Source: an uncultured bacterium (GTDB lineage: Bacteria; Omnitrophota; Omnitrophia; Omnitrophales; Abzuiibacteriaceae). From it: a stretch of 64,000 nucleotides of DNA. Position 1 is the stretch's first letter. Each line of letters starts with the position of its first letter. The notes below the pieces were generated by a model. It was not told the origin of the DNA. It made no database searches and was given only the letters and a program-made list of their open reading frames with translations. Positions 5,521 to 53,497 of this stretch are shown here, in pieces. The stretch lies in contig CAYLXA010000001.1 in NCBI GenBank assembly GCA_964387845.1, forward strand, positions 224,001-288,000, given 5' to 3'. Made by a program: the position numbers and the translations under genes.

Positions 5521-5565
5521 TGGTAGCGGGGGCCGGATTTGAACCGACGACCTTCAGGTTATGAG
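5521..5565 (-). repeat. Displaced 3' half of tRNA-Met, including an encoded CCA. This is the attR-side direct repeat of the island.
   Basis: The 42-nt stretch 5524..5565 is identical to 53424..53465, the 3' half of the intact tRNA-Met. It is preceded on the minus strand by CCA and sits next to the integrase. Confidence 0.8.
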
Positions 5566-15505: not shown

Positions 15506-16296
15506 CAGCCCGGCCTTCCCAAACTTTCAATACCAAGCTGCATCTCGCGCATATATTTAAGACGCTCCCGCTCGAAGCGCTTTTCATCGCGCGACACTTG
15601 CTCTAATTTGGTTGCTTCAACCTCAAGCAACTTGGCGAATATTTCCTGATTCTCTTGCGTAACGACAATCAATTTTCCGGAGGCATCCGCTGAAAGTCTT
15701 GCCGCCCCTTTTGGACTTGCCGTCTGCGATAATTCTTGAATGGTCTCGCCCGCTTGCTTTGTTTCATCTGAGCGCTTTCTAATTTCATGCGCCATTAAGT
15801 AAGCTTCGCCCACCTGCGATTCATCAAATGTGATATAGGGACGCTCCACAGATTGAGGGTCCATTCCATGAATGGTTTCAATATAGGACTTGATGCCTGA
15901 CGGGTCGCCGTAACCTTCAAGTATGGTCCCCAAATTTCGGATGGCGTCTTGTTCAACGGACGGTTCGAATCCAGCAAGGAATCCATCCCGAAATGTCGAC
16001 TGTGAATCTCTGAAGGCCCGCGCCGCATCCTGGACAAAACTTCTCACGAATTCTTCGATGCCAGCGTTAAAGCGCATCATTTCCTGATACGTGTTTTCAA
16101 GTTCCGTAAGCTGATCGAATAATACGATAATTTCCTGTGCAAACTGATTTTCCATCAAGGAATTGCGAAGTTCATTCAGCGCGGCATTGACAAAATCAAT
16201 CACAGGCAGATCCGCCTTCGCTGTGCCGGGGCAGACGGCTAGGCTTGCTGCTAAGTAAAGCGAGATGACCGTCAACCTTAATTTTGGTGATTTCAT
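15505..16296 (-). CDS. trbJ: T4SS component TrbJ/VirB5-like
   Basis: Signal peptide followed by an all-coiled-coil ~260-aa protein, at the expected position after VirB4. Confidence 0.55.
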   Translation of the reverse strand: MKSPKLRLTVISLYLAASLAVCPGTAKADLPVIDFVNAALNELRNSLMENQFAQEIIVLFDQLTELENTYQEMMRFNAGIEEFVRSFVQDAARAFRDSQSTFRDGFLAGFEPSVEQDAIRNLGTILEGYGDPSGIKSYIETIHGMDPQSVERPYITFDESQVGEAYLMAHEIRKRSDETKQAGETIQELSQTASPKGAARLSADASGKLIVVTQENQEIFAKLLEVEATKLEQVSRDEKRFERERLKYMREMQLGIESLGRPG

Positions 16297-18773
16297 ATGG
16301 CAGGAGCCTCCTTACGCCACGTGATTCCTCGCGGATATTTACCCGCGAGTATTCTCAGCCGTTCCAACTCACTCAAACTTGGCTCCATTGCGCGGAGCCT
16401 TTCCTCCTCGATTTGGTCGTTGGGCTCTGTTGTTGCAATCCAGTAGTCAAGGGGCGAGGGCTCAAGCTTAGCCGTGACAGCTTTGTTAAAAAACTTGATG
16501 AAGATTTCGGAGAAAACACCGGGCCTTATTTCCAATTCTTCGCAAGCGCTGACCTCATTCGGATTCAGGTCAAACTTAGACAGCAATTCATGCCCCTTTT
16601 GAAGCTTTAAAATGTATTTCACGTAGGAATTGGAAAGAATGGCGGGTGCCGCCTTTGATTGAAGAAAATCCACAGGGCTTTGGCTGATTGAAAGAACGAG
16701 ACCGTTTGTCTTTCTGGCTGTTCTGTAAAGCTCTTCAATCAGCTTTGAGCCGACATCGTCATTAAAAAAGCGCCATCCTTCGTCAATGACAATGATTTTG
16801 CGGAGCGAAATGTCACCCAGTTTTCTAGCAATGGCGGATCGGATCACAAAAAAAAGAATGGATTGCAGTTCAGGGTGCTGTGAAAGCTTGCCCAAGTCAA
16901 AAACAATGAATCGGTTATCAAAAGTCAGGCTGCTTTGCCGGTTCAAGAGCCTGCCAAAGCGACCTTCGGTCCACATGCTTAAATTCTTTGAGAATTGATA
17001 CGCTTTCCGCTTGTCCTCGTCATCACCCGCCGCATAATTTCGAAGAATCATTTGCACATCGCCCAAAAGAGGTCGGTGTGTATCCTGAATGCTTTCGTAG
17101 ACTTTCAGAATTGATTGTTCAAGAATTCGAAGCTCTGAACTTTTCACTCTCTCCCTCTCAGAGACCATCTTTTCAAGCAGGGTGCTCAGAAAACCTAAAA
17201 GATCGGCGTTCACTTCGCCGGGCTTTGGGAATAATTGACGTTTCTCAGGAAATAGGTTAAGCGCATATTCTTCCGTGCAGTCGATTTGCAAGTAATGACC
17301 GTCAAATAAACGCGCAAGTTTTTTATAACTGCCGCCCATATCGATTACGATAACGTGATTCCGATCTCCTGCGATGAGAAAACTGCTCAGCAAATGATTC
17401 GCAGTGAATGACTTCCCGGAACCCGTGCTCCCAATCATGACTGCATGCTTCGCCGGAAGCGACGGATCAAAAAGATTAAGCGCAAACCCTTCGTCTTCGT
17501 GAGTTTTGAGCAAAATATCGAAGTCATCCGTTCCCTTCCATTCTTCCCCGAGCGGCAATAGATGGCTCAATGCGCCTGTTAAGACAGGAAACACGGATTG
17601 ATTTTGATCGGCCTGCAGGGGTAAATGTGACAGAAACAACGTGTCATGCTCCAAATGATCGAAGATTCCGACTGAGCCGCCCAGTTTCGGGAAAGCTTTC
17701 AAAACAGCTTCCTTCTTACGAGCAAGCGCCGCTTCGTCCTTTGCCTTAATGAGCACAGAAAGCGAGATATCAAAGACGCTTTCGCCTTGCTCGGCCATTT
17801 GATGAAGAAATGATTCGTATTGGGACGCCTTTTGCCTTGCAAAGTGATCCTCTGAAATCCGGAAGAAGGCGTTTGCGTGCGCGAAATTGGCTCTGATTCG
17901 AAGCTTGCCAATTTCTTTGTCCTGGTCTTTCTTCCTAAGAGTAATCATCCATTCTGAATCATCCGGCATAAGGCGATCAAATGACTTAATCATTTTCAAG
18001 CCGACATGGCCGGGCAGCGTCCTTAAATTAGCAGCCGAATGAAAATAACCGTCCATATAAAGCGAATTTCTGTAAATTTTGGGCGGATGAAGCAAGAGCC
18101 GCGACCTCAGCGTTTCAAACTTGGGATTGGTTAATGGATTCTCCTGAAACGCGTCTTCGTATCGGACAATCTGAGATAGTGAAGGATTAAGTTTCCTGTA
18201 GTACTCGCGGATAACGTCCATTGCGGAAAGTCTCTCGACCGTGACACCCAAGGCCTTCAACGCCGTGATGATCAACGACTCAGCTTGAAGCAGATAAGCC
18301 TTGCCTTCTTCATGATTTGAGCGATGAAATGATCTTGACCGCTTCCGTTTTTTCTCAGGGCTTAAATGGCTTAAAAACAAAAAAATTTCCTTTTTTACCA
18401 AACGCGAATTTGTTAGTACATTTACTTTCTCCCGCACGATCACGTTGACCAATGGGTCTTGGCGTGAGGTGTTCGCTTGACACCTCCCGAGCATCTCATC
18501 GTCGCCCCGGCTTGAGCGTTTAACGAATGACAATAAAATCCCTGAGGGCAGCCGATTCAGCAGTTTCTGAAGTTCATGCATGAACGCGACTATTTCGGCG
18601 TCATCATAAAGAAGGTAATCAACACCTGAAACTTTATAGACAAGCGCCATTCGCCCTGAAACCCCGACGGCTAAGCCATCTTCTTCAACAGCCATGAGAT
18701 CAAGTGCCGGGAAAAATGGAACGCGTTGCAGTGAGTCGCTCAATTCTTTAATCGTCAGCAATGTTTCCATCAA
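16293..18773 (-). CDS. trbE: T4SS ATPase TrbE/VirB4
   Basis: 826 aa. Walker A GSTGSGKSF, and a Walker B/DExx region. This is the CagE/TrbE/VirB4 architecture. Confidence 0.85.
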   Translation of the reverse strand: MMETLLTIKELSDSLQRVPFFPALDLMAVEEDGLAVGVSGRMALVYKVSGVDYLLYDDAEIVAFMHELQKLLNRLPSGILLSFVKRSSRGDDEMLGRCQANTSRQDPLVNVIVREKVNVLTNSRLVKKEIFLFLSHLSPEKKRKRSRSFHRSNHEEGKAYLLQAESLIITALKALGVTVERLSAMDVIREYYRKLNPSLSQIVRYEDAFQENPLTNPKFETLRSRLLLHPPKIYRNSLYMDGYFHSAANLRTLPGHVGLKMIKSFDRLMPDDSEWMITLRKKDQDKEIGKLRIRANFAHANAFFRISEDHFARQKASQYESFLHQMAEQGESVFDISLSVLIKAKDEAALARKKEAVLKAFPKLGGSVGIFDHLEHDTLFLSHLPLQADQNQSVFPVLTGALSHLLPLGEEWKGTDDFDILLKTHEDEGFALNLFDPSLPAKHAVMIGSTGSGKSFTANHLLSSFLIAGDRNHVIVIDMGGSYKKLARLFDGHYLQIDCTEEYALNLFPEKRQLFPKPGEVNADLLGFLSTLLEKMVSERERVKSSELRILEQSILKVYESIQDTHRPLLGDVQMILRNYAAGDDEDKRKAYQFSKNLSMWTEGRFGRLLNRQSSLTFDNRFIVFDLGKLSQHPELQSILFFVIRSAIARKLGDISLRKIIVIDEGWRFFNDDVGSKLIEELYRTARKTNGLVLSISQSPVDFLQSKAAPAILSNSYVKYILKLQKGHELLSKFDLNPNEVSACEELEIRPGVFSEIFIKFFNKAVTAKLEPSPLDYWIATTEPNDQIEEERLRAMEPSLSELERLRILAGKYPRGITWRKEAPAI

Positions 18774-19033
18774 ATTTCCTCCCGTGTCTGTGTGAAATAG
18801 GCGGGCATGAAAAAATAACGAATCAAATTCTTAGTAAACCTGTCTGCCTTATTCCTTTTGTAATATCTGAGAAATAAATAGACCGCGAAGACAAATGAAA
18901 GATTGACCATGAGATTCTTTGAGCCGAGAAAGACCATAAGATAGACCGCTAACAAACCAAGCAAGTCCATCCATTCAAGACCGAAGAATTTGTTTTTTTG
19001 TGTAATCATTGGATACATCGTTATTGGCTTCAT
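18770..19033 (-). CDS. trbD: T4SS component TrbD/VirB3
   Basis: 87-aa two-TM protein immediately upstream of VirB4, with overlapping stop and start. Confidence 0.6.
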   Translation of the reverse strand: MKPITMYPMITQKNKFFGLEWMDLLGLLAVYLMVFLGSKNLMVNLSFVFAVYLFLRYYKRNKADRFTKNLIRYFFMPAYFTQTREEI

Positions 19034-19034: not shown

Positions 19035-19337
19035 CTAAAACCCCGTCACATTCTTTATTAAGTCAAGCACTGCTCGGGCAAGCATAATGAGCGCTCCGCC
19101 CCCTGCTGCCAGGGCACCGCGCCTCATGCCTTGTTCATTTCCAAGCGCCATTGAAATACCAGATACCGCAATTCCGATCACAAGTATTCCAGGACCTACG
19201 CTCTGTATTAGAAAAGTCCCAACAGCATCCAGGAAATAGCCCAACTCTTCTTGATTCTGCGCCTCCGCATACGCAATGCCCGCGTGAAGATAAATAGCCG
19301 TCAGTATCACAAGATATTTCGCAATCATTTTCCGCAT
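19035..19337 (-). CDS. trbC: T4SS pilin TrbC/VirB2
   Basis: A 100-aa product from MRKMIAKYLVILTAIYLHAGIAYA (signal peptide) with two hydrophobic helices. Consensus RBS AAGGTG. The longer ORF-track start at 19430 runs through a conserved non-coding motif and is rejected. Confidence 0.65.
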   Translation of the reverse strand: MRKMIAKYLVILTAIYLHAGIAYAEAQNQEELGYFLDAVGTFLIQSVGPGILVIGIAVSGISMALGNEQGMRRGALAAGGGALIMLARAVLDLIKNVTGF

Positions 19338-19358
19338 ATATTCACCTTGGGGGATAGC

Positions 19359-19376
19359 GGGGTCAATTTTGACCCC
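19359..19376. promoter_or_regulatory. Perfect palindrome GGGGTCAATTTTGACCCC in the trbC leader. It is either an operator or a 5'-UTR hairpin.
   Basis: 8-bp arms around a TT centre, between the conserved promoter motif and the trbC RBS. Confidence 0.4.
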
Positions 19377-19412
19377 GCCCTTTGGAACAGCCGCATGCGC
19401 TGTAAAAGTCCC

Positions 19413-19462
19413 CTCATAGATGTTGTGCAAAAACGGGCATTTCGTAACAAGAAATTTAAAAT
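19413..19462 (-). promoter_or_regulatory. Conserved ~50-bp promoter/operator element, copy 1 (upstream of the trb operon)
   Basis: ctcatagatgttgtgcaaaaacGGGcatttcgtaacaagaaatttaaaat is about 88% identical to 26639..26688. The second copy is upstream of the traG/relaxase operon. Confidence 0.55.
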
Positions 19463-19468
19463 CCCATC

Positions 19469-19837
19469 TTAAAATTTATTTTTCAGTATCTGGATTCCCA
19501 CATATTTCTTGAGTTTGGTCGCAGCCCTGCGTATATGCATCCGTACGATCGCGCTATCTGAAATATTCAACTCTTCTGCTATTTCCAGATTGCTCAATCC
19601 TTGCAATGTTAATCTGACGCACTCACGCTCTCTCTTAGACAGCCCGGCACGACTTATGGCTCGTCTTGCCATTTCTTTCTGTTCATTTTCAATCAGCACC
19701 TCGACCGGCGAGGGCTGAGTGGCCACCTTCTTCAGAATTTCTTGATGCAAATCGGTTTTTGGGTCATTTTCGATCTTCTGAAAATCGACACCGATACGCA
19801 CCGTTCTCTTTGTTTTCCATTGAGTGTTGTTTTCCAT
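19469..19837 (-). CDS. Small sigma-70 region-4/LuxR-type HTH regulator
   Basis: RERECVRLTLQGLSNLEIAEELNISDSAIVRMHIRRAATKL is a sigma-70 r4 HTH. The gene is immediately upstream of the trb promoter motif. RBS GGAGGTGG. Confidence 0.6.
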   Translation of the reverse strand: MENNTQWKTKRTVRIGVDFQKIENDPKTDLHQEILKKVATQPSPVEVLIENEQKEMARRAISRAGLSKRERECVRLTLQGLSNLEIAEELNISDSAIVRMHIRRAATKLKKYVGIQILKNKF

Positions 19838-19940
19838 TTTCCACCTCCATATGGTGGAAAATGGGCGAATACCTCCTTCTATAACTCTTTAACTAATAAA
19901 TACTTACGATAATTTTATAGGCGAATATACGGATAGACAC

Positions 19941-19991
19941 AAAAAAAGACACCTGTAAGCGGACGAGGGCGGAAGGAATTCCGCCCTCGTT
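19941..19991 (-). terminator. Rho-independent terminator after the 19998..20312 gene
   Basis: 11-bp stem GACGAGGGCGG/CCGCCCTCGTT. On the minus strand it is followed by a T-run (forward aaaaaaag). Confidence 0.55.
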
Positions 19992-19997
19992 TCACAC

Positions 19998-20312
19998 TTA
20001 ATTCCTAATCCTCCGGATTGTTGAGATCCAAGCTTGAAGATCGCGATTCAAGAATCGCAACCGTTCAGCAATGTTTGCCATTGGAGGCTTCTGCTCGATG
20101 ACCTCAATACTCTTTGCGCCTGCCGAATTCGGCTGTCTGGCTTGGAGCCATCCCGCAAACGATTGGGCAAAGAAGCAAATTGCTAAGACCACCGGAGCGA
20201 TGAGAAACATTAAATTGATAAAGGCAGCCAGCATGCACTTCAGCAAGAAAATGGTGAAATTCCGCAGCCTGCCTAATGCCTTTTTTATTTCGGTTAGAAT
20301 GAATTGTTTCAT
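19998..20312 (-). CDS. Small membrane protein of unknown function
   Basis: 104 aa, two hydrophobic helices, followed by a terminator. Confidence 0.4.
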   Translation of the reverse strand: MKQFILTEIKKALGRLRNFTIFLLKCMLAAFINLMFLIAPVVLAICFFAQSFAGWLQARQPNSAGAKSIEVIEQKPPMANIAERLRFLNRDLQAWISTIRRIRN

Positions 20313-20324
20313 TTTGAATTATCC

Positions 20325-21362
20325 TTATACGAGTTGATATTGCCGGTTTTGAATTTCCAAGTTACTTTCCTCCTTTTCGTACTCCGTTAGATAATCAAAG
20401 CTGCAATCTTCACAGAATGAGCCGCCGGTTGCTTCGTCATAAAAGAGTTTGCCGGCTTCCACTTGGTCTTTACACAGTGAACATAGAAGCTTTGATTTTT
20501 CAGTGATGTTTGAATCTTCGAGAAATCCCATATACCGAAGCTCATCAAAGCTGTAGAGATAGGGATTCCCCGGCACTTTGAAGTCATCCTCTGTGAGCGA
20601 CTTGCGCATCGGGTTCTCCATCTCGCAAGGTATTTTTCGCATGGGACATTTTTCAGAAAGTTCTTCAACGTTAATTTTGTAAAGCACGTTGGATTGAATC
20701 TCGAGAAAATTGCCTTTCATGAAGTTTCTTGCAAGAGCGTATTGCAAGTGGATTTTCTCGCTCGACCAAAGCAAGGTTTTGAACTTAGGGACATAAACAG
20801 CGTAAAGCGTCCGTTCAACATTTCGGATGAGATAAAGCGTTTTCCTGTCATCCGTTTGCATGAATGCCAACGCAAAATCCCCAAACATCATCGAAAGCCG
20901 TTCAGCGACTTCTCTGTCGGAGGAGGCGCCATCCAAAACACGGAATACCGCCTCGCTATCGACGTCAGTTTTTTGCTCCGTGTTAAATCGTTTGAGAAGT
21001 TCAGTTCGATTTAGAAAATGCCCATTGTGCACACCGGCAAAATTCTCCGAGACAAACGGATGACAATTCCGGGATGAGATTGCTCCTACTGTGGCAAGCC
21101 GCGTATGGCCCAGAACAATGAGCGTATCCGCACCGATTTTCTTGATGACGTTACGCATCCGGACGGTGCGCAAAAGCTCGCTCGCTGGTCTGGCTTCCTT
21201 GAAAACGGTCATGCTCTCTTCTGCTGCTGTGAGCAATCCAGTTCCGTCTTGACCTCTTGTTTCATTGAGAAAAGCCAAATCCATCACTACGCCTTGAAGC
21301 CTCAGTTTCTCTGCTCCGCTTAAGGGCAGGGCCTCTCTCACAAATCCGAATATTCCACACAT
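20325..21362 (-). CDS. Class-II (Ntn-type) glutamine amidotransferase, YafJ-like, with a C-terminal zinc ribbon
   Basis: MCGIFGF gives the N-terminal nucleophile Cys2. The GATase-II fold continues through ...HTRLATVG...NCHPF. The C-terminus CSLCKD...CEDCS forms a CxxC-Xn-CxxC ribbon. Confidence 0.7.
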   Translation of the reverse strand: MCGIFGFVREALPLSGAEKLRLQGVVMDLAFLNETRGQDGTGLLTAAEESMTVFKEARPASELLRTVRMRNVIKKIGADTLIVLGHTRLATVGAISSRNCHPFVSENFAGVHNGHFLNRTELLKRFNTEQKTDVDSEAVFRVLDGASSDREVAERLSMMFGDFALAFMQTDDRKTLYLIRNVERTLYAVYVPKFKTLLWSSEKIHLQYALARNFMKGNFLEIQSNVLYKINVEELSEKCPMRKIPCEMENPMRKSLTEDDFKVPGNPYLYSFDELRYMGFLEDSNITEKSKLLCSLCKDQVEAGKLFYDEATGGSFCEDCSFDYLTEYEKEESNLEIQNRQYQLV

Positions 21363-21410
21363 GGTAAGTCTCCTTAGGTTTAATTGGGATTGAACTACTG
21401 AAGTGATAAA

Positions 21411-22685
21411 TTACTTTTGAACAGCTGCCAGAGTGGGAGCTGTTTCGAAGAACTTCTCGGGATGAAACTTTAAGATCCTTTGCTCGATGTAATTCCGAAT
21501 CTTCGTCCGGAATTTCAGCAGCACGCAGAATGCCTCAAACTGTTCTTTGAATGAAGCAAACTCCGAAAACCTGAAGTCTCTTTGACGCTTTGACTCGTCT
21601 ACGATCGCTTGGCAGATCACAATGAAATTTGTAATCTTAAGCGGGTTCGTTGTTCCCGAGTGATAGCGAAACTCCACTGAACGCCTGAAGAACCAAGAGT
21701 GAATGTTGACACCGAAGTATCTTGAGTTGTCAAACTTAGACTTCGTATCCACTCGCGCATTCCTTCTGCCGTACCAGAGCCGCTTTAAATCCATCTCATC
21801 TTTGACTTTGAACCGGAACCGTGATTTGGGAAATCGATTGAGCGGCACGGAGTAAGAACCGGAAAACCTTGATTCCGGAAGCATGGCATAAATCACCGGC
21901 TCAAACGCCACCGCAATCTTCAGCAATTTCTTGATGTTCTGAAAATCAAGATCCCGCCCATCAATGTGGACATGAAGACCGCAGCGCTTGTCCACGAAGT
22001 AATTCCAGTCAAGCAGCTTTTGAGTGAAAATGGCGATTTCGTTAAAGCCGTCATCGCCTTGAAGAATCGGGCTCGCAAATTCCATGCCCCAATCTCCCAG
22101 AGAGCCGTCATGCTGTTTGCTCCAAGCGCCCACTTCATCAACCGGAAGATGCATTTCCTCATCCCGAAGTATGGCTTCAATTTCCACGCCGTATTTTCTT
22201 TTTGATTTGCACAGTTTGAATTTAGCCGACGAAAATTCATGGTGCTGAATCAGCTCGCCGTTCTCCACCATGCGGTCGTAACAGTCTTCACAGTAAGTTG
22301 ACTCCCCTCTTCTAAAGCAGCGGGTAGAGTCAACCTCAGAACCGCAATCCTCGCAGAAGATTATGTTTTCAGATTCACAGGCGGAGCAGTAATAGACGTC
22401 CTGCAAATCTGAATAACGAGCGTCCTCTGACGCCGCATATTCCCCGCAGGCATTGCATTCCCTGTAATTGGCGTGAAAGCAGCTTTCACAAAGCCTCAAC
22501 CCTGCAACTGCAAAGGATTCGTCAAGCCACATGGGACGTTCGCATTTCCCGCACGGCTTCACACGTTTTTCAAAACACGCCGGGCAAAGATACCGGTCTT
22601 GATAGGTTTTAAACAAATCGACGTTTACGACAACACTGCAGGACGGGCATTTCTTTTCTTCTGCCCGTATTTCCAAAAGTTCCAT
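21411..22685 (-). CDS. Glutamine-synthetase/GCS2-like carboxylate-amine ligase (amidoligase) with an N-terminal array of four zinc ribbons
   Basis: Eight CxxC pairs lie in the first ~150 aa. They are followed by YGVEIEA, GMEFASP, GLHVHIDG and SVEFRYH, which resemble the E-x-E / H-x-H / EfR motifs of YbdK/GCS2-type ligases. Confidence 0.55.
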   Translation of the reverse strand: MELLEIRAEEKKCPSCSVVVNVDLFKTYQDRYLCPACFEKRVKPCGKCERPMWLDESFAVAGLRLCESCFHANYRECNACGEYAASEDARYSDLQDVYYCSACESENIIFCEDCGSEVDSTRCFRRGESTYCEDCYDRMVENGELIQHHEFSSAKFKLCKSKRKYGVEIEAILRDEEMHLPVDEVGAWSKQHDGSLGDWGMEFASPILQGDDGFNEIAIFTQKLLDWNYFVDKRCGLHVHIDGRDLDFQNIKKLLKIAVAFEPVIYAMLPESRFSGSYSVPLNRFPKSRFRFKVKDEMDLKRLWYGRRNARVDTKSKFDNSRYFGVNIHSWFFRRSVEFRYHSGTTNPLKITNFIVICQAIVDESKRQRDFRFSEFASFKEQFEAFCVLLKFRTKIRNYIEQRILKFHPEKFFETAPTLAAVQK

Positions 22686-22709
22686 GGCTCATCTCCTTTT
22701 CTATTGTTT

Positions 22710-22898
22710 TCAAACTGTCTGGTGATCTTGGCTTTGGTTTTTAACTGACATGCGATCTCTGCGCTTTCGCTCATAGAGACGCTTTAATATCCACAAGGGA
22801 ACGAACGTCCAATACCCTCTTGGCCTTCCTGTCCACTCCGAAAGCTGGTCCGCATAAACTGATTTGTCTTCTGAGTCAAAAATGATGTAGGGATTCAT
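22710..22898 (-). CDS. Small hypothetical protein (62 aa)
   Basis: Good RBS AAGGAG upstream. It lies between the amidoligase and a hairpin. Confidence 0.35.
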   Translation of the reverse strand: MNPYIIFDSEDKSVYADQLSEWTGRPRGYWTFVPLWILKRLYERKRRDRMSVKNQSQDHQTV

Positions 22899-22965
22899 GG
22901 CAAGCTCCTTAAGTGAGAGGGCGGAAACTTTTTATTTCCGCCCTCTTTGTGTGACATGGCTTTGA

Positions 22966-23061
22966 TCAGCGCAGGACAATGGCCCAGCCGAACCGAACAA
23001 AATCTGTAATAAGATCCGGCATCAGCATTGCTTTGGCGCGTGAAACAATCAGCGTCTTCAT
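22966..23061 (-). CDS. Possible 31-aa micro-ORF, MKTLIVSRAKAMLMPDLITDFVRFGWAIVLR
   Basis: Strong RBS AAAGGAGG 7 nt upstream of the ATG. The ORF is flanked by two GC-rich hairpins. Confidence 0.25.
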   Translation of the reverse strand: MKTLIVSRAKAMLMPDLITDFVRFGWAIVLR

Positions 23062-23141
23062 GGAATAAACCTCCTTTGAAAAGACAAAGGGCGAAGAATC
23101 GCTTCTCCGCCCTTTGCTTAATAGTTTGATCGAAGTTCTTA

Positions 23142-23369
23142 CTAGCTGACTTGGACTTGCTGTTCAGCTCTGCGCAAACCTTCAATCAGTTCGCCGATGA
23201 GCGCACAGTTAATTGTGACGCCTTTCTTCGTCGGCCGCGCTTCGCCCGTTACGGCATCAGCGAAAAAGACCCTGACATCAACGTAATCACGGTCTTTGTA
23301 CTTGCCGACTGAGATTTTAACTTCTTCGTTTTCATTACGTTTAAAACTGTAAATTTCCTGCTTTTCCAT
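23142..23369 (-). CDS. PC4-like ssDNA-binding protein (second paralogue)
   Basis: KYKDRDYVDVRVFFADAVTGEARPTKKGVTINCALIGELIEGL is the PC4/YdbC signature. RBS AAAGGAGA. Confidence 0.6.
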   Translation of the reverse strand: MEKQEIYSFKRNENEEVKISVGKYKDRDYVDVRVFFADAVTGEARPTKKGVTINCALIGELIEGLRRAEQQVQVS

Positions 23370-23452
23370 TTGAATTCTCCTTTTTTTGATTTAATGTTGG
23401 TTTATTTGAGCTTTAGTGTTTGGTCTCTTTCGCTTGAACCTCCTTTCTAAGA

Positions 23453-23493
23453 ACAAAAAAGGGGAAGAAGCCTGCTGAACAGACCTCTTCCCC
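23453..23493 (-). terminator. Rho-independent terminator after the coupling-protein gene
   Basis: GGGGAAGAAG...CTCTTCCCC hairpin. On the minus strand it is followed by TTTTTTG. Confidence 0.55.
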
Positions 23494-23536
23494 TCTTTTG
23501 ATTTAATGTTAAATTAGGACTTAATTAGCGATTAAC

Positions 23537-25360
23537 TCATCGTTTGGCTCCTCTTATCTTTTCAAATTTATGCGCAGTATCACTGAGCGTTTGAAACTGA
23601 TCGCTTTCGTCTTGAACGATTTCAGGCTTTGCGCTTTCACGTTTCCAATGCTCTGTTGCCCGCTCACGTTCATCTTTAATCTTCATGTGTATCCATGTTA
23701 AATTAATGTCTGTTTCAGAGGACAGCCGCAGATAATCAATTTTAAAACTTGGATATTTCATGACAACAATCGCTTCGCCGCGTCCAAGTGAACGAACCAA
23801 GTCAGGGTCGATGCGAAACGTCTGCGCTTCTCTGACAGATCCTCGCCCTGTCATGTCTGTGCCGAGCATGCCGGATTCAGTCTGATACGTGGAAACAAAA
23901 GTTCTTCGGGAGCCTCCAATTTTTGAATATTTGTCAATCGAGAATGGGTCATCCTGACGCATGATGATTTTTACGTTTGTGTTCTCGAGGATTTGCTGCT
24001 GAAAGGTCATGCGCTTCGCCGCGAGGTCAGCCAGGCTTTGGTGAAGAAGCGTTACAGCAAGTTTGGCGCCGCGCGCTTTATTCATGAAATCGATGAAGTT
24101 CTCGTAGACAAAGCTTGAAAATTCATCCACGTACACAGGAAAAAAGTGCCGCTCACCCTCTTCCATCTGCGTTTGAATGTAGTTGGAAACTGTTTTAATG
24201 TCCTGCAGGATGAGACGCCCGAATCTTTTCGCCGTTTCTTCGTAGCCCTGCGTATTGAGTGCGAAATAGACAATTTTATTCTTCTGATAAACCTCTAGGA
24301 GGTCAATTTTTGATTCCTGAGAATCCGTCAGTCTTGAAAACTCTGATTTAGTTACGAGGCCTAAATCCGCGATGAATCCAGAGAGAAACTTGGTATTATC
24401 ATGAAACATGTCTTTCATGACTTCCAAGTCCTTCGACATCCGGATATCGTCAAGCTGCGCTATCAGCGCTCGTAATTGATTCTTGTCCGTTAAAAGCTCA
24501 TACAAATCCCGGAACCTGACTTTTCTGTTCAAACTCACCAAAGCTCTGAGCAATGTCAATGCGGCTTCTTCCGCCTTTTTTCTGTAAAATTCCTCGCGCC
24601 ATTCAGTAGAGCCGATCAGTTTGTCCTTAATCTCTGATGCGTTTCCGCGCAAGAGTGGGTTGTATGTGTCCGATATTTCCGGATGTGATAGCGAGAAGAA
24701 TAGAAAGTCATCTTTCCTGCCGTTAATTTGAACAAAGTAACGAATCTTCGCCAATAATTCCAAATCGCCCTTGGCGTCCACGACTATCGCCCCGCGGCCT
24801 CGCTCGATATCCCTTTTAAGCAGCGGAAGCATGACTGATTCTGTTTTACCAACGCCCGTTGAACCTACAACATGCGTATGCATGAGCCTCATGTCATCCG
24901 TTAAGTAACAGCCCTTGCCCGACCAATAACTCGTACCCAGATAAGCTTGATTCGCCTCAACCGCCGTTTTTTGCTTCGTGATTTCTCTCGAAGAAATTCT
25001 CTTCAATCTGCGTTTCTTATCGTCAGAGGATGTATCTTTCGAATTCTTCATTGCATATCCCGTCAACATGAAAAACGGCAATGTAATCAACAAATAGGCG
25101 CTGTAGAGGCACGTAGCCGCGACTCCCGCTTTCGTCCAAGGTCTCGCCTCAAACCTTTCAACAAACCCATTTAAATATTTAATTGACCAAATGGTCGTAA
25201 GCGCTGCAAGCAAGGTGCTCAAATAAGCTATTATCTTGACCCAAGAACTAGATTGATTCTTGACCCATCCGTCAAGCTTCTTGCCCAACCATACCGGAAC
25301 GGATACGAAAAGGAATTCAAACGTTGACCCCGTAAGGCCCTTTGACGGCTTCTCATTCAT
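23537..25360 (-). CDS. traG: Type IV coupling protein (VirD4/TraG family)
   Basis: Two N-terminal TM helices. Walker A VVGSTGVGKTE. A TraG/TrwB-type nucleotide-binding domain of 607 aa. Confidence 0.8.
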   Translation of the reverse strand: MNEKPSKGLTGSTFEFLFVSVPVWLGKKLDGWVKNQSSSWVKIIAYLSTLLAALTTIWSIKYLNGFVERFEARPWTKAGVAATCLYSAYLLITLPFFMLTGYAMKNSKDTSSDDKKRRLKRISSREITKQKTAVEANQAYLGTSYWSGKGCYLTDDMRLMHTHVVGSTGVGKTESVMLPLLKRDIERGRGAIVVDAKGDLELLAKIRYFVQINGRKDDFLFFSLSHPEISDTYNPLLRGNASEIKDKLIGSTEWREEFYRKKAEEAALTLLRALVSLNRKVRFRDLYELLTDKNQLRALIAQLDDIRMSKDLEVMKDMFHDNTKFLSGFIADLGLVTKSEFSRLTDSQESKIDLLEVYQKNKIVYFALNTQGYEETAKRFGRLILQDIKTVSNYIQTQMEEGERHFFPVYVDEFSSFVYENFIDFMNKARGAKLAVTLLHQSLADLAAKRMTFQQQILENTNVKIIMRQDDPFSIDKYSKIGGSRRTFVSTYQTESGMLGTDMTGRGSVREAQTFRIDPDLVRSLGRGEAIVVMKYPSFKIDYLRLSSETDINLTWIHMKIKDERERATEHWKRESAKPEIVQDESDQFQTLSDTAHKFEKIRGAKR

Positions 25361-26088
25361 CCCAAGATGGAGCGTAGAGGAATTCTGGATGCCTTATTCA
25401 TCAGCTCCGCATCTTTCTTTTTCAGTAAGAGCTCATCATAGAGCACAAAGCAAAGCTTATTCTGAGGAACTTCAATGTCCAATAGCCAGCTCTTCACCAT
25501 GTGCCAAGACAGGATATAAATCACCAGGGTGAAATCATTTAGACGGCTGTATTTCGCAAACCTTGTCTCATACCTTTCCCGTTCCCTGAAGGAATTTTCA
25601 AGTTCAATCGCAATTCTCTGCCCGCTTACTTCGATGACCGCGTCAGGAAAAAATTCCCGGTCGTGCTCTTCTTTTCTGACAACCCGTTCGCTCAGCCATT
25701 TAACACCCTTAAAGTCCCGAAACAGGCACCGCAACGTCGCCAACTTGAGCGTATGCTCTATCGTATATTGGTTGATATCCCCGATTTCTCCAAAGCCACG
25801 GTCCAGCCCTTTCTCTTTCAAGACATCTATCCCCTCAGCCGTCAGCAGAAAAAGTCTCACTTTTTCTGATTTCGCCTTCTGGACATCCAAAGTCCTAATA
25901 AATCCTGCATCAACAAGCTTGCTCAAACGCTGCCTTGCAGTTCCTGACCTCACTTCGCTGTCAGGCCAAAATGCCGAGTAAATTTGATTCGCCATCATGT
26001 ACTTTTGTTCATTCAAGTACGTGAATATCTCGATATCACGCTCTGTAATGACGACACGCCGCAATTTATCCAATAAGTTTTCAGCCAC
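25357..26088 (-). CDS. Replication-relaxation (Replic_Relax) family protein, the candidate relaxase/mobilisation protein
   Basis: N-terminal wHTH (IFTYLNEQKYMMANQIYSAF...RLSKLVDAGFI). C-terminal FFPDAVIEV...IAIELENS matches the PDa...lEvD core of the Replic_Relax family. It overlaps traG by 4 nt. Confidence 0.5.
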   Translation of the reverse strand: MAENLLDKLRRVVITERDIEIFTYLNEQKYMMANQIYSAFWPDSEVRSGTARQRLSKLVDAGFIRTLDVQKAKSEKVRLFLLTAEGIDVLKEKGLDRGFGEIGDINQYTIEHTLKLATLRCLFRDFKGVKWLSERVVRKEEHDREFFPDAVIEVSGQRIAIELENSFRERERYETRFAKYSRLNDFTLVIYILSWHMVKSWLLDIEVPQNKLCFVLYDELLLKKKDAELMNKASRIPLRSILG

Positions 26089-26141
26089 AGATTCACTCCC
26101 TCGCCATGGAAAGCCGGTTGGGCCCTTCCATGGCTTGCGAA

Positions 26142-26549
26142 TTACCGAATGGCCAGATCGGCCATTTTCCTCGCTAGATTTCTTGTTTCACTGACCGTAT
26201 TGCCAATGCTCCTTAAGTCATCCCTCAAGTTCAGCTGCCTATCCTTAAACCGATTTGGCGTCTTTGGCGCTTGAACAGGCTTCATCTGATAAACTTTTGG
26301 GGCTACCGTCAAACGAGCCTCCCTTGCCGCTGGTTCAATCTTACTCACACCCGCCTCAGCGTCTTTTGTCCATTGCAATTTCATGACCTGTTTTACGAGA
26401 TAAGCAGGCAGAGTCAGCCCTATTGCCGTTGACCCGATGATCATCCAGCAAGAAATACTGATACTTACAAGCTTAACTCCTAGTTTTCTCAGCTTGAGAT
26501 CCGTACGATCAACCGTTTCACTGACTTGCTTTTCAATTTCTTTCAACAT
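26142..26549 (-). CDS. Hypothetical membrane protein, first gene of the traG operon
   Basis: 135 aa with one TM segment, preceded by the conserved promoter motif. Confidence 0.35.
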   Translation of the reverse strand: MLKEIEKQVSETVDRTDLKLRKLGVKLVSISISCWMIIGSTAIGLTLPAYLVKQVMKLQWTKDAEAGVSKIEPAAREARLTVAPKVYQMKPVQAPKTPNRFKDRQLNLRDDLRSIGNTVSETRNLARKMADLAIR

Positions 26550-26638
26550 TGTGGAACTCCTTATGTGGAAGCTTTATCGCTTCAAGTCTTTCATCCAAGT
26601 TTATGCTTGGCGGTTTCTGTTTATTTTTCGAAATGTTC

Positions 26639-26688
26639 TCTCATAGATGTTGTGCAAAAACAGCCATTTCGTAACAAGCAAATTCAAT
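26639..26688 (-). promoter_or_regulatory. Conserved ~50-bp promoter/operator element, copy 2 (upstream of the 26549 traG/relaxase operon)
   Basis: ctcatagatgttgtgcaaaaacAGCcatttcgtaacaagcaaattcaatt; see 19413..19462. Confidence 0.55.
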
Positions 26689-26766
26689 TAACAGATGGAA
26701 AATATTTTTTTATGTCTATTAATGAACTCAATTCATTCAACTCACCACTTCCTCACGAGCACCTGT

Positions 26767-26863
26767 CCAAAAACCCTATCTCTCTACACACACCACACCC
26801 ACTGACAAGTACCCCTCGATTACGGATGGGAGAGATAGGGTTTTTGGACGGGGACTCTCCCCG
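26767..26863. repeat. Inverted repeat with 18-bp perfect arms, CCAAAAACCCTATCTCTC...GAGAGATAGGGTTTTTGG, around a 45-nt loop. A 6-bp hairpin follows. Candidate oriT or structured RNA.
   Basis: The arms are read directly from the sequence at 26767..26784 and 26830..26847. It lies in the 450-bp non-coding gap between the STAND gene and the mobilisation operon. Confidence 0.5.
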
Positions 26864-27004
26864 ACGCTTGTGCGAAGTGAGGAAGTTACGTAGAATGCTT
26901 CAGTTACGAAGGAAGCGATGAATTCAAGTTCCCCTAAGTTACAATTTTTTGCGGGGATGAATGCGGAAATTTAAAATTAAACAAACATGTTCTTACGGTA
27001 ATGC

Positions 27005-30000
27005 TTATATAGTAGCCTCTGCGTCTTGGGTAAGCTCTTGTTTCATTTGTTCATCGCCGTAATTTCCAACATCTAAATAAAATTGATGCGCAGGGTGTTC
27101 TACACTAAAAAGCTTTGCGGTTTCCTTACCGCGAGTTGCTAGATTTTGGCTCTTTGCTGAGACTTCTCCAAATGACCTTGATGATCCCCCGCTAATTGCT
27201 ATTCCAAATAGATTGGATTTTACACGTTTAAGGCATTCAGCAGATTTATTTGAAGCCAATAGAATCAACTCTCCAACAAAAGCGTGCTCGTTAAATATAA
27301 AATTATCCTCCGCGTCTCTGACTAAAAGAGATATGCCCACAAGTTTATTTACAGTAGGATTTTTAAACCACTCTTTTAATATAGCTAAAGATTTAGCCGA
27401 ATACCCATCTGAAACTGCCCGAAAAAGCTTTTCAAGCCAAAAACGATCCGCTGTTTTTGCTAAAGACAGATTTCGAACTACTCTTACGTGCTTCTCATAT
27501 CCCATCATCGTGGAAATACCTTTATAAGCAGTGTCAAATCCTAAATACGGAAGGGGCGTATAATTTTCTCTTCTTGTAAGTTTTTTGACGGGCTTAGTTG
27601 ATTGACTATATAAATAGCGTGCAACTAAAAACTCAACGGCTGCCTGCGGATATTTTCTACAAACAAAAGAAAGGAATTCCTCAACATGGAAATCCTGCCG
27701 TTCAAAGATGTTAAATTTAACCAATTTGCTTAATAAGGATTTTAATTCGGTTTCATTCAGCTTAGAAAATGGAATGCCATAGTTCTCATTATAAATTTCA
27801 AAAAATTGGTCGAGCACTATTCCTCTTTCTTTCAAATCAATGCCCACAGCAAGTTTCTTAGCAGCTTCCGCATCAACCTGCCCTAGTTTTTGAAGTGCCT
27901 GAAGCGCCGTGCCAAAAATATTGTCGTTGCTATGTTTGAGTAAATACCCTACATTCTGGATATCCTCTTTAAAGGGTTTTTCTAAAAGGCCGCCCCAAGC
28001 GTAGGCATGAGCAATGTTGTGGTAGACGATTTGCCTTTTTGTTTTTAGTCCTTGTTTAATTAACGCCCTACTGATTTCTCGATAACTTTCCAATCCATTC
28101 AAGGGCCATAAAATTGATGAGCAAAATTTTTCCACTTCACCATTCTTTCTAGCGAGGCAAAGCTTAAATAATTTTACGGCGAAATCGGGATTGAGTTTTG
28201 TAATTTGAGAAAGAAGGTAATTGGGGTTAGCTGATCTTTTGTAGTGATTTAAATCGCGTAATCTTTTTTCTAAAACCATTAACAACTGACGAGGATTCTT
28301 AGCCTGTTTCAATAAGATTTCAGCTACCCCGCTCACCTCTTTTGCCGTTATTTCAGTTTGTTTACTAAAATCATGCTTTTTATTAACAAATTCTTCGAAA
28401 TCGTGAGCTATCGCACGGACAAGACGATATTCGAAATTCTCCGGTATAAGCTCATAAATACTTTTGATTTTTTTCTTTAATTCGTCGTGCCTTCCAAACA
28501 AACTAAACCAACGAAGTTGCGATCTTACGGCAAGTCGGAAACAGGACGACTTAATGATCTTTAATTTTCTTTTAACCAATTCGAGAATTGATAACTGTTC
28601 TGGCAAATAAACATCTTGCTCTGACTTTCCAGCGCGACGACCGTATAGTCCATGAGAATAGCTCAATGCTTTTAAGAGAGTATAAAGAGCTTCCATTAAC
28701 ATCTTTGGCGGGGCATCCGGTTGGATGAAGGAGCCAAGTAATTCTATAGTGCTATTACGCAAGTTTTTCACGGCTTCGTAATTTAAAGGCAAAGACCTGA
28801 AGGACATGCTTCCTTCATCGTACGAAGACTCTTCAATCTCTTTCGCGAGGAATTCTTCCAAAATATTCAAAGGTGTATAACGGTAAATAAAGTTATTTTT
28901 CTTGGCCACGGTTTCTTTAAGGAAGGCAAAAACTTTCTTATTGTAAACAAGGGGCTTTCCGACTTGATATTCAGCCAACTCTTTTAAGATTCTAACGGAA
29001 TGCTGCGGATGAGGATTTAATTCTCTTTCGTCAGTTTTTGCAATTTCCCAGAGAATTTTACAGGCAGGAGTGACATATTCTAAATTAAAGGCTATCTTTT
29101 TTAATATAGATGGAATTTTTTCCAATACATGACGATGCTTCCAGAAATCTCCATATAATTGCTTCTTAGGATTAGGGCGTGCGGGCGCTTTAATGGCGTG
29201 GTTTACTAGCTCTAATGCTTTATCAGGTTGATAATACGCCGACTCTTCGATTTCTTCCAAGATTTTAGTTCGCTCATAATGATCAGCTTTTCTAAAATCT
29301 TCGTGGATTTTTTTCCAAACGGAACTTAAAAGATCTACATTCAAGGCATTTTTTCTTGCTCGCCACTCTACTTCAGAAATATTTTTAAGAATGTTTTTTG
29401 CTAGAGTTGATTTAAATTTCTCATACACATGATCAGCAAATTTAGTGCTTGAGCCATCTTTGGCAATACAGGCTGAGTGAAGAATATGATCACTCAATAA
29501 ATCAGGAGCAAGCCTTGCCAACGCTCCGCGTCTTATCAAAACCCCTTTTTCTTCCATCGCATCAAATGCTTTGACAATATCAAAAACAGGACACGCAAGA
29601 AGTTCGGACAATTGTTTCCGTAACTCCTCGTTATTCAATCTCACTGGGGCAAGCACAGAAAGATATTGAAGAAGCTTATCTGCTAATCCCGGATTGGAGT
29701 AATTTTCTCCTTTAAGTTCATCTATAAATTTATCTAAAACGGTTCTTTGAAATTCATCGCTTTTGCTTATTTTGTATGGATGCAGCTTTTTATCGCGAAT
29801 TAATTTGCTGGCAATTACCGCTGCCAGGGGGCAGTCTCTGGTCATAGCCACGATATATTTAATCAGGCCAGAATCATGTCCGACAATGCTTTCAACGATT
29901 TCTTCTAAATCAACCTTTTTCAAATCACTTAACTCCGGAGGCCGTTCGATTTCGTTTAACAAAAGATTTGTATGCGCCAATACACTATCGACAAATTCTT

Positions 30001-31071: not shown

Positions 31072-31428
31072 TCACGCTGAGGAATTATCAAGTGAAATCG
31101 ATAAGAGCCAATGGCCATTGTGCTGATTTTTGATTTTTTTAAGATTTTCATACCGTTTAAACAAATCATCCGGCAAACGTTCAAGGGCGTTTTCGATATG
31201 CTTATTGACAGTCTTTGGCTTAATTTTCATGGCTTGAGCGATTTCCTTCCGCTTCATGAAAAGCGAGAGAATAAAAGACGCCTTCTGGCTTGCCGTCAGC
31301 GAACGGAATAAGACCGGAGAACGGGGATTAATCTTTTCAGAGAACACGCGAGAGTTTGATTGGTCTCGCTCCTGCTCTCTGACAAGTTGTTCTAATTCCG
31401 GTGAAAACTTTTTAAATTGTTTTGGCAT
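31072..31428 (-). CDS. Small sigma-70 region-4-type HTH regulator
   Basis: LTASQKASFILSLFMKRKEIAQAMKIKPKTVNKHIENALERL is an ECF sigma r4-like HTH. Confidence 0.5.
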   Translation of the reverse strand: MPKQFKKFSPELEQLVREQERDQSNSRVFSEKINPRSPVLFRSLTASQKASFILSLFMKRKEIAQAMKIKPKTVNKHIENALERLPDDLFKRYENLKKIKNQHNGHWLLSISLDNSSA

Positions 31429-31576: not shown

Positions 31577-31768
31577 TTACACGATAAGCCTGATTGGACT
31601 GTCCACGATTATTTCAGCGCGGACACCGAAACGGCCGGGTCGATCTATTCGTTGCTTGGGGACAATGGCGAGCTTGCCATTAATAATCTTAAGCCTGACT
31701 TCGCCAAATTCTACTTCCCCAAGAAAGTCTTCCATCTTTATTTCGGGGTGATCCATTTCTCTTGGCAC
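31577..31768 (-). CDS. Small hypothetical protein (63 aa)
   Basis: Strong RBS AAAAGGAGG upstream. I prefer it to the overlapping plus-strand ORF 31469..31783, which has no RBS. Confidence 0.4.
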   Translation of the reverse strand: MPREMDHPEIKMEDFLGEVEFGEVRLKIINGKLAIVPKQRIDRPGRFGVRAEIIVDSPIRLIV

Positions 31769-45663: not shown

Positions 45664-46155
45664 TCACGCCTTATTTGATGAATCTTCTCTTTGTGGCCCC
45701 AAAATCTTCTTCAAAGCTGTAATCAAATTCAAATGAAAGGACTCATTTTTTGGAATAACAGCATGAAATAAAACTCCTTCTAACTGATAGTACCATTCCA
45801 TCCGTGGAAATTCATCTGTCGTGAGGCAAAGCATTGGGAGTTTTATGCCAGCATTTTTTATTCTGCGCGCAAGCTGAATTCCCCAATTAAAATCGATCTT
45901 GGTATCTTTCAATTTTAACAAATGTTTGGCGAGCGGTAGATTTGATTGCGTTCTCATGGACAAAGCAAGAGATTCTCCCCCAATTCGCATTTCTTTGGAA
46001 ATCACAATTGCATCGACTTCATGCCTCCTAATGGCTTCTTCAATAAAGTTTTCACTAGATATTCCTATAACCTCATAGGCAAAGGATTCAAGAATTGGCC
46101 GCAAATCAGCTACCAGATAATCTTCCTCTATGAAGAGAAGTCTTTTCATAAACAT
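45664..46155 (-). CDS. Degenerate receiver-like (pseudo-receiver) protein
   Basis: REC-like alternation of strands and helices, but the acidic pocket reads EED and the phospho-site position is Ser (IVISKEM). Confidence 0.4.
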   Translation of the reverse strand: MFMKRLLFIEEDYLVADLRPILESFAYEVIGISSENFIEEAIRRHEVDAIVISKEMRIGGESLALSMRTQSNLPLAKHLLKLKDTKIDFNWGIQLARRIKNAGIKLPMLCLTTDEFPRMEWYYQLEGVLFHAVIPKNESFHLNLITALKKILGPQREDSSNKA

Positions 46156-49450: not shown

Positions 49451-49453
49451 TGC

Positions 49454-50624: not shown

Positions 50625-50685
50625 TGGCTAGAGAGCGCTCGACCCGGCACGGAAGAACCTCTCAGGGCATTAAGCCTTTTCGCCA
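50625..50685. repeat. ~60-bp repeat R, copy 2
   Basis: See 41952..42013. Confidence 0.55.
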
Positions 50686-53220: not shown

Positions 53221-53331
53221 TCGGACAAGTCAACAAAAACTTTAAAAAAATTTTCATCGATCTGTCAAGTCTGACATAGACCACGTCTTTGATGATAAGC
53301 GAGAAGCATGTGTGGTGAGTTTTTCAAGGTT

Positions 53332-53416: not shown

Positions 53417-53423
53417 ACGAAAC

Positions 53424-53497
<74 letters not shown>

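Follow-up and report, generated by a model that had tools for sequence, protein, structure and literature searches.

Here we describe a duplicated sequence of about 45-50 nucleotides (nt) in a 64,000-nt stretch of DNA, hereafter the window, from an uncultured Omnitrophota bacterium (contig CAYLXA010000001.1, positions 224,001 to 288,000). The sequence stands once before each of the two operons that encode the conjugation functions of an integrative and conjugative element (ICE), and we suggest that it is probably an ICE-specific promoter/operator controlling both. It would place under one control the mob operon, which codes for a 135-amino-acid (aa) protein, the relaxase and the coupling protein (T4CP), and the trb operon, which codes for the pilin, VirB3, VirB4 and the rest of the type IV secretion system (T4SS). 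The best candidates for a cognate factor are two small proteins of the ICE, r4-A and r4-B, that resemble only region 4 of sigma factors. The two copies of the element are as follows.

19413..19451, minus strand: copy 1 (the trb copy), core CTTGTTACGAAATGCCCGTTTTTGCACAACATCTATGAG
26640..26678, minus strand: copy 2 (the mob copy), core CTTGTTACGAAATGGCTGTTTTTGCACAACATCTATGAG

Read on the coding (minus) strand, the element has a 39-nt core, CTTGTTACGAAATG-NNN-GTTTTTGCACAACATCTATGAG, which occurs exactly twice in the 64 kb. The pattern CTCATAGATGTTGTGCAAAAACNNNCATTTCGTAACAAG matches both copies with 0 mismatches outside the central NNN, and 100 shuffles gave 0 matches; no further site was found in the 64 kb at up to three mismatches to this pattern, and neither half-site scans nor a profile hidden Markov model (HMM) found a third copy. 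The first-pass annotation had placed a repeat of about 50 bp upstream of both operons in the same orientation. This repeat is real, and its position holds for copy 1 (19413), while copy 2 starts at 26640 rather than 26639. The copies are direct repeats 7227 bp apart with one orientation relative to the downstream transfer genes: the ATG of trbC (19337) lies 75 nt past the core of copy 1, and the ATG of the 135-aa gene that opens the mob operon (26549) lies 90 nt past the core of copy 2. The pair can be extended to 80 nt at 78% identity (19404-19483 and 26631-26710), after which similarity drops to background level. The outer part consists of weaker similarity, in the A/T tracts up to 19483 at copy 1, where it overlaps the final codons of r4-A, and up to 26710 at copy 2.

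Relatives of the ICE were recovered via r4-A, the coupling protein, the 135-aa protein and the DNA pattern. They fall into five lineages (J, N, O, K and M) and one fragment (P), so that with the window (W) six lineages can be compared. Where the source names an organism, the label is Omnitrophota or Planctomycetes, and all come from uncultivated groundwater bacteria. One contig (L012) was left out because it looks chimeric upstream of the leader, and a viral contig scan and a plasmid database yielded no relatives. The lineages, with metagenome-assembled genomes abbreviated as MAGs and the element given for four of them, are as follows.

Lineage J: L003/L004 (JGI contig Ga0268299_1000078) and L001 (Logan contig, same sequence)
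Lineage N: L006 (NCBI contig) and L014 (ENA contig); element TTGCAGTCRAAGGCCTRTTTTTGCATAACATCTATGAG
Lineage O: L005, L010 and L011, from MAGs labelled Candidatus Omnitrophota and Planctomycetes; element TTCTTGCCG...CCCATCTATAGTGAG
Lineage K: L007 (JGI contig) and L008 (Logan contig); element TTTATTTTTATGTCAACAYGAGTCRRTTTCAAACACATATTAATAGTGAG
Lineage M: L009 (Logan contig); element AATTTTTTTCTGTGGAGACCCCYRTTTCGAYCCCCCTATAGATT(A)GAG
Lineage P (fragment): L013 (Logan contig)

Each of the six lineages carries its own sequence of about 45-50 nt exactly twice, before the mob operon and before trbC, in the same orientation. The duplicated sequence differs from lineage to lineage and is nearly identical between the two copies inside one lineage. 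When only the trb copy of lineage N was known, a mob copy was predicted; the sequence obtained later has the N-specific upstream box TTGCAGTCRAAGG, as expected if the two copies of an ICE evolve in concert. A profile HMM trained on every copy finds the 12, two per ICE, in about 150 kb (the window and six loci). This recovery is by construction, and the informative part is that neither the mismatch scans nor the HMM gave a third copy in those 150 kb, the next match scoring 6.6 bits (E 1.3). The complete lineages also share a gene order, namely r4-B (where present), a large inverted repeat, the 135-aa gene, relaxase, T4CP, variable small genes, r4-A, trbC, virB3 and virB4. The element is inherited together with r4-A and r4-B, and its duplication, position and orientation are common to the lineages.

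The conservation of the element can be set against that of the surrounding proteins. Proteins of W and J are about 70% identical, yet the core differs at one base only (in the J mob copy), the free NNN triplet aside. The r4-A protein of N is 45% identical to that of W, and the 22-nt downstream half of the element has one substitution in the N trb copy and two in the mob copy; the upstream box has changed between these two lineages. The final r4-A codons (AAAAATAAATTTTAA) are conserved at the nucleotide level, whereas the coding sequence before them is not so conserved. Across W, J and N, not one nucleotide changes in the A/T-rich block AAAAATAAATTTTAAGRTGG, which overlaps the end of r4-A, and blocks of similar A-tract/T-tract make-up stand in the non-coding DNA of the mob copies. 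These comparisons show strong purifying selection acting on the DNA of the element itself, with both copies evolving in concert, lineage by lineage. Within a lineage, the copies are highly alike between about -45 and +3, counted from a GAG at the element's end, and their identity collapses directly downstream, as expected if the element ends at the transcription start. In a separate observation, four short-read contigs (three Logan and one NCBI MAG; L001 and L002 at their ends, L008 and L011 at their starts) break at or near the GAG edge, which is expected where two copies share more than k bases.

From 5' to 3', the common skeleton consists of A/T tracts, a lineage-specific box, 2-3 variable bases, a T-tract, a lineage-specific stretch, a TATA-like box and GAG. 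The A/T tracts are phased, resemble UP elements and lie at about -70 to -45. The lineage-specific upstream box reads TTGTTACGAAATG in W, and the 2-3 positions after it vary even between the copies of one ICE. The T-tract of the downstream half is TTTC/TTTG, and the GAG is invariant. Past the GAG, the operon and not the lineage sets the sequence: trbC is preceded by GAGGGGA and the mob operon by GAGAGAAC/GAGAACA. Directly before the GAG, O has the hexamer TATAGT, K AATAGT and M TAGATT, each with an A as its second and a T as its sixth base; P has ATAAGT, and W, J and N have only ATCTAT, or TATGAG if shifted.

This arrangement was compared with several known promoter classes. A sigma-70 consensus scan, for a TTGACA-like -35 and a TATAAT-like -10 with 16-18 bp between them, found nothing at either window copy, in line with the earlier remark that the element does not look like a strong sigma-70 promoter; it gave no sense-strand match in K and M, and accepted TCGACC-17-TATAGT in the mob copy of O (9/12). 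The GG and GC 10 nt apart of a sigma-54 promoter (TGGCAC-N5-TTGCW) are absent, with TGGCTGTTTTTGCA, that is GG-N8-GC, in copy 2 and TGCC without GG in copy 1. There is no 18-20-bp dyad of the lux-box/LuxR type, the element having no internal dyad at all. Sigma-54, sigma-28, extracytoplasmic function (ECF), sigma-32 and Bacteroidetes-type promoters were rejected as candidates, their spacing or key bases being misfit or not conserved across lineages. An antisense or divergent promoter (plus strand, TTGTGC-16-TAACAA in W and TTGAAA-17-AAAAAT in K) has no conserved counterpart in O or M. The two halves share internal direct repeats (for example TTGCAGTCAA and TTGCATAA in N, or GACCCC twice in M), but these have inconsistent spacing (12-19 nt) and were not relied on. 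What the element does match is the arrangement of a shared transfer-regulon motif of the SetCD/TraR/TrbA type, with fixed orientation at 75 and 90 nt from the start codons and presence in six of six lineages.

Three genes of the ICE are candidate or possible regulatory components, as follows.

19469..19837, minus strand: r4-A, 122 aa, with a sigma region 4 / LuxR-GerE helix-turn-helix (HTH) only, directly upstream of copy 1
31072..31428, minus strand: r4-B, 118 aa, a region-4-like HTH protein and distant paralogue of r4-A
31577..31768, minus strand: a beta-rich open reading frame (ORF) of about 60 aa immediately before r4-B, shared by lineages W, O, K and M

The r4-A protein exceeds the Pfam gathering thresholds of both GerE (PF00196, 43.5 vs 23.5) and Sigma70_r4_2 (PF08281, 31.7 vs 25.7 bits) and has no region 2, bearing out the first-pass description of a region-4-only protein encoded directly upstream of copy 1; r4-B exceeds the threshold for GerE only (24.6 vs 23.5). 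Both match the C-terminal half (linker and region 4, about 80-164 of 165) of ECF sigma models below the cut-offs, and neither is a full ECF sigma: TIGR02937 reaches 34.4 bits against a cut-off of 42.9 over the C-terminal half only. Their paralogy is indicated by an hhalign probability of 95.8% (E 6.8e-9). Like GerE and other stand-alone LuxR-type HTH proteins, r4-A passes the GerE cut-off, and by profile search its closest PDB domains are the DNA-binding domains of NarL and GerE. In contrast, its AlphaFold2 (AF2) model (mean pLDDT 74.8) fits sigma region 4.1-4.2 over a greater length, superposing 78-88 columns at a root-mean-square deviation of 2-3.5 Å on region 4 of SigH, SigA and ECF sigmas, and only 45-60 columns on NarL, GerE and VpsT. 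Moreover, GerE-type proteins bind short dyads as dimers, which the element does not contain. The r4-A family is very rare, with four members in 5.8 billion protein clusters, profile query included.

In all six lineages, r4-A (29-69% identity) is the gene next to the trb copy on its upstream side. The r4-B gene is shared by W, O, K and M (29-41% identity); in the last three it stands 0.2-1.3 kb before the mob copy, and in W a 3.9-kb STAND NTPase gene is inserted between the two. These two proteins are the best candidates for an ICE specificity factor, with r4-A as the prime candidate for the cognate one. Given a promoter/operator module, whether r4-A and/or r4-B would be its direct binders is evenly balanced in our judgement. 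Between W and N, the HTH of r4-A is 33% identical and the N-terminal half 51%; this divergence of the HTH parallels that of the upstream box alongside a constant downstream half, a co-variation that is weak, confounded by phylogeny and suggestive only. The ORF of about 60 aa recurs in relatives (L005 6480-6665, L007 7886-8068, L009 291-524) with the motif F.xEVGxGE.K.K...GK....P.Q and only a weak Pfam match to DUF2292; it is possibly a third regulatory component. Just upstream of r4-A, the window also has a gene for a membrane protein of about 104-115 aa (19998-20312, minus strand) with the C-terminal motif RDL..W(I/L), found in relatives at L004 3182-3496, L014 9517-9831, L005 13575-13922 and L009 9218-9559 and conceivably an anti-sigma-like partner. 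A G+C-rich hairpin, GAGGGCGGA...TCCGCCCTC, follows this gene.

On this basis a mechanism can be sketched. Host RNA polymerase would read the better conserved parts, namely the A/T tracts and the TATA-like box, lineage-specific recognition would probably come from the ICE's own region-4-like proteins, and transcription would most likely start at the GAG or within a few nucleotides of it. As the W copies lack a usable -35 and a good -10 for the housekeeping sigma, they should be silent unless a specificity factor encoded by the ICE, for which r4-A and r4-B are best placed, recruits the polymerase of the host. The promoter function, the start site and which protein would bind which half are what we infer from comparing sequences. 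A more radical version holds that r4-A and r4-B have a genuinely sigma-like role as detachable promoter-recognition modules, one per half of the element, replacing region 4 of the host sigma or forming a split sigma with no canonical region-2 subunit. Phage T4 AsiA/MotA is a natural example of such sigma appropriation. We consider this version unlikely.

Several points weigh against a promoter/operator. All of its support is comparative. The -10-like hexamer of W is poor (ATCTAT or TATGAG), and no -35 is consistent across lineages. A start at the G of GAG, as pairing within the leader would have it, puts the TATA-like box at -6 to -1, which is too close for a -10 of the sigma-70 family; if the box is a true -10, the start falls about 7 nt further downstream and the conserved pairing of GAGGGG is left outside the RNA. 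Leader pairing and -10 box thus do not fit one simple geometry. In addition, no terminator separates r4-A from copy 1, so that read-through transcripts are possible, and the co-variation of the r4-A recognition helix with the upstream box is weak and confounded by phylogeny. Finally, the sequence recovered for J and N shows no r4-B beside the mob copy.

The strongest competitor, itself unlikely, is an ordinary promoter of a host sigma factor, housekeeping or alternative (for example of a sigma-32-like CCCCATNT type), that was duplicated for response to one host signal, with no direct role for the r4 proteins. The O mob copy does score as TCGACC-17-TATAGT, the upstream tracts are A/T-rich in the manner of UP elements, and CCCCAT/CCCCCT stands just before the TATA box in O and M, resembling a sigma-32 -10. 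However, the spacing from TTG to this CCCCAT-like box is 18-19 nt, and sigma-32 promoters of E. coli have 13-15 nt; there is also no sigma-70-type match at the window copies. The sequence from the A/T tracts to the TATA box is completely different in each lineage and near-identical between the copies within a lineage, which argues against a shared host factor, since such a factor would impose one consensus.

It is also conceivable, though considerably less probable, that the element works as RNA, as a site within transcripts from further upstream (e.g. from an r4-A promoter) that is processed or recruits anti-termination at each long operon in the manner of ops/RfaH or LoaP. The missing terminator before copy 1 suits this idea, and so do the stable leader stems that start exactly at the 3' edge of the element, as expected after cleavage in the AU-rich TATA stretch. 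The features of the trb leader are as follows.

19338..19415, minus strand: trbC leader, containing the hairpin at 19357-19378; its 5' GAGGGGA pairs with CCCCC just before the ribosome-binding site (RBS)
19357..19378, minus strand: the "palindrome" GCGGGGTCAA-TT-TTGACCCCGC (plus strand as written), a 9-10-bp stem with no U-tract after it

In minimum-free-energy folds of the W, J, O, K and M trb leaders, the first bases after the element (GAGGGGA...) pair with a CCCCUC tract near the RBS, and the alignment of W, J and N shows one compensatory change in this closing stem, from G-C to A-U in N. The element itself behaves differently: six copies folded as RNA have z-scores of -0.80 to +1.59 against shuffled controls, that is, no extra stability, the best single-strand folds reach -2.2 or -2.9 kcal/mol, and a search of Rfam matched nothing there at E<=1. 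A hairpin with the variable NNN in its loop was rejected, its fold being marginal (-2.2 kcal/mol) and no better than shuffles. By these tests, the element is not a structured cis-regulatory RNA. Furthermore, the conserved part includes A/T tracts of the kind usual upstream of promoters, what precedes copy 2 is intergenic DNA with a candidate oriT hairpin and not a co-oriented regulatory gene, and Pfam scans revealed no NusG/KOW-type protein among the ICE ORFs or the conserved neighbours. The known ops elements are 8-12 nt long, against about 45 nt here.

The leader also bears on another element of the first-pass annotation, which had reported a perfect palindrome, GGGGTCAATTTTGACCCC (19359-19376), in the trbC leader and counted it towards a common operator. 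The inverted repeat is present, though strictly it consists of perfect 10-bp arms, GCGGGGTCAA/TTGACCCCGC, around two central nucleotides. The trb leaders of the W/J/N group are the only place where it is found, and their alignment shows two compensatory pairs; with a stem that changes compensatorily between lineages, it behaves as a hairpin of the 5' untranslated region and not as an operator. Accordingly, of the earlier proposal that the transfer genes have a common dedicated control, the shared cis-element is strongly supported, with exactly two copies in each of six lineages, and the palindrome drops out. The mob leader has hairpins of its own on the minus strand, two small tandem ones with ATAAA-type loops (26568-26583 and 26595-26610; CCAAGCATAAACTTGG and GAAGCGATAAAGCTTC). 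Their conservation extends to all of W, J, N, O, K, M and P, with compensatory changes of the second stem in K (AAAGTCATAAAACTTT), and they could be RNA stabilisers or protein-binding repeats.

Less probable still, and very improbable in our view, is a role in DNA processing, as a second oriT/nic or as a target of site-specific recombination, with direct repeats flanking an excisable 7.2-kb segment. The copies are indeed direct repeats 7227 bp apart, copy 2 adjoins the relaxase operon, and dual oriTs exist in ICEclc. Nevertheless, an oriT would be a single site by the relaxase gene whose inverted repeat adjoins nic, whereas the element is duplicated and has no dyad, and no recombinase is associated with it. 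Across lineages, the distance between the copies ranges from 6.1 to 8.9 kb and the intervening cargo is lineage-dependent, whereas each copy keeps a fixed place with respect to the start codon that it precedes. The better oriT candidate is another conserved sequence, an inverted repeat.

26747..26886: large inverted repeat of about 140 nt just upstream of copy 2, a candidate oriT distinct from the element

This repeat is found once per ICE (two arm copies would have appeared as a direct repeat), with counterparts at L003 ~1238-1370, L005 ~8140-8275 and L014 ~1343-1495. Its outer arms ACTTCCTCAC/GTGAGGAAGT are present in W, J, N and O and its right arm (GTGAGGAAG) in all six lineages, and the inner arms differ between W/J/N and O with complementarity kept. 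It is likely to be the oriT.

As for a chance match or a duplicated coding remnant, mechanical ORFs do overlap both copies (19035-19430, 19251-19472, 26526-26921), but the comparative data refute this reading, because shuffles give no matches, similarity ends within 80 nt, the two copies in O and in M differ by 1-nt indels and the intergenic position is conserved across six lineages. The end of similarity within 80 nt and the indels also exclude the longer duplicated coding remnant that the first-pass annotation had named as a way to refute its proposal.

A promoter/operator shared by both transfer operons would have precedents. SetCD boxes of the SXT/R391 ICEs, tra boxes of TraR on Ti plasmids and TrbA/KorB operators at the trb/tra promoters of IncP-1 plasmids are shared transfer-regulon motifs. 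As in these systems, one motif precedes separate operons for mating-pair formation and DNA processing, the putative regulator is encoded by the element, and the transfer functions would fire together. Unlike theirs, the motif here is about 45 nt long, non-palindromic and bipartite, and runs through the -10 region to the presumed start; the candidate regulators are region-4-like only, and not FlhCD-like, autoinducer-binding LuxR or ParB/KorB-like. Orf7 of Tn916, too, is annotated as sigma-like with region 4 only. Small proteins of that ICE, Orf7 and Orf8, activate the promoter Porf7, ultimately giving expression of the transfer genes (PMC5812530). Tn916, however, has a Firmicute host and one promoter that reads through the circularised element, with no duplicated module.

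A parallel for a region 4 without region 2 is SigO, a sigma-4-containing protein that has no sigma-2 domain of its own and needs RsoA, encoded in the same yvrI-yvrHa operon, for the sigma-2 function (PMC8103513). Here likewise, r4-A and r4-B match only the linker and region 4 half of ECF sigma models. In contrast, no sigma-2 partner was found in this ICE or its relatives, and two region-4 paralogues are encoded here instead. Pfam scans gave no Sigma70_r2 match in the ICE or the conserved neighbours, a very divergent partner being possible, and the neighbours that are conserved (the ORF of about 60 aa and the membrane protein of about 104-115 aa) are not sigma-2-like by Pfam, so a split sigma of the SigO-RsoA type was not found. 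The element also recalls promoters of the T7 type, with a contiguous conserved block of about 23 bp that is A/T-rich around -17 to -14, is lineage-specific in the middle and has TATA directly before a purine-rich start (CTATAGTGAGGGGA here, CACTATAGGGAGA in T7), and with a leader that starts with a 5' stem. Its conservation, however, extends about 25 nt further upstream, and neither the ICE nor its relatives have a gene for a single-subunit RNA polymerase or a large unassigned conserved gene. Specifically, Pfam found no RNA polymerase domain in ICE ORFs of at least 180 aa and many smaller ones, and the relatives have no conserved gene of adequate size. Because no single-subunit polymerase is encoded, we treat this resemblance as architectural only.

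The ICE that carries the element is about 48 kb long, with all of its transfer genes on the minus strand. Its main features are as follows.

5524-5565 and 53424-53465: perfect 42-nt direct repeat bounding the ICE (~47.9 kb), which is integrated in tRNA-Met; the repeat is a copy of the 3' end of the tRNA-Met gene (53423-53498, minus strand)
5648-6877, minus strand: tyrosine integrase gene
16293-18773, minus strand: virB4, after the virB3/traL-like gene
18770-19033, minus strand: virB3/traL-like gene, after trbC
19035..19337, minus strand: trbC/VirB2 pilin gene, first gene of the T4SS operon, downstream of copy 1
23537..26549, minus strand: mob operon, downstream of copy 2
23537-25360, minus strand: coupling protein (T4CP) gene
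25357-26088, minus strand: Replic_Relax relaxase gene
26142-26549, minus strand: gene for the 135-aa membrane protein, first gene of the mob operon

Beyond virB4, Pfam scans place VirB9-like and VirB10-like genes in the T4SS operon. A second repeat, TTTGTTAGCACC(A/G)TGTTAGCACGG, lies near both ends of the ICE (5682-5705 and 53330-53353) and may be an integrase arm site. The STAND NTPase gene between r4-B and the oriT/mob region (27005-30919, minus strand) encodes a defence-like protein of 1304 aa that also has a DUF4062 domain; it is present in this ICE and not in O, K or M, and is probably cargo inserted into the regulatory region. Among the other cargo, both between the transfer operons and outside them, are an amidoligase_2/GATase pair and a 2070-aa RHS/Tc-toxin-like protein (20325-22685 and 33980-40192, both minus strand) and several two-component system genes (44423-49831). 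Another pair of direct repeats, of about 56 nt and 89% identity (41952-42007 and 50625-50680), belongs to the cargo near Ig-like/FG-GAP surface-protein genes and may be a further shared regulatory or leader sequence.

Literature searches gave no description of this ICE family or of the motif, and on that showing the family, which belongs to uncultivated groundwater bacteria, is undescribed. Since hardly any conjugative element of Omnitrophota or neighbouring uncultivated phyla has been characterised, the module offers a first regulatory handle on this family: it points to two transfer promoters and to the proteins predicted to switch them, and it supplies a sequence signature, namely lineage-specific 45-mers that come in pairs and end in a TATA-like box and GAG. 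Assembly breaks at the GAG may mark such paired promoters in other assemblies as well. Should the element turn out to be merely an activator-dependent promoter, it would be a clean and unsurprising case of co-ordinated transfer-gene control. If, on the other hand, region-4-only proteins do direct the polymerase, the ICE would have promoters of a class of its own, with specificity and element co-evolving lineage by lineage. This would provide compact, orthogonal and naturally diversified pairs of promoter and factor, of which at least five specificities are visible, and would bear on how sigma-like specificity can be split or appropriated.

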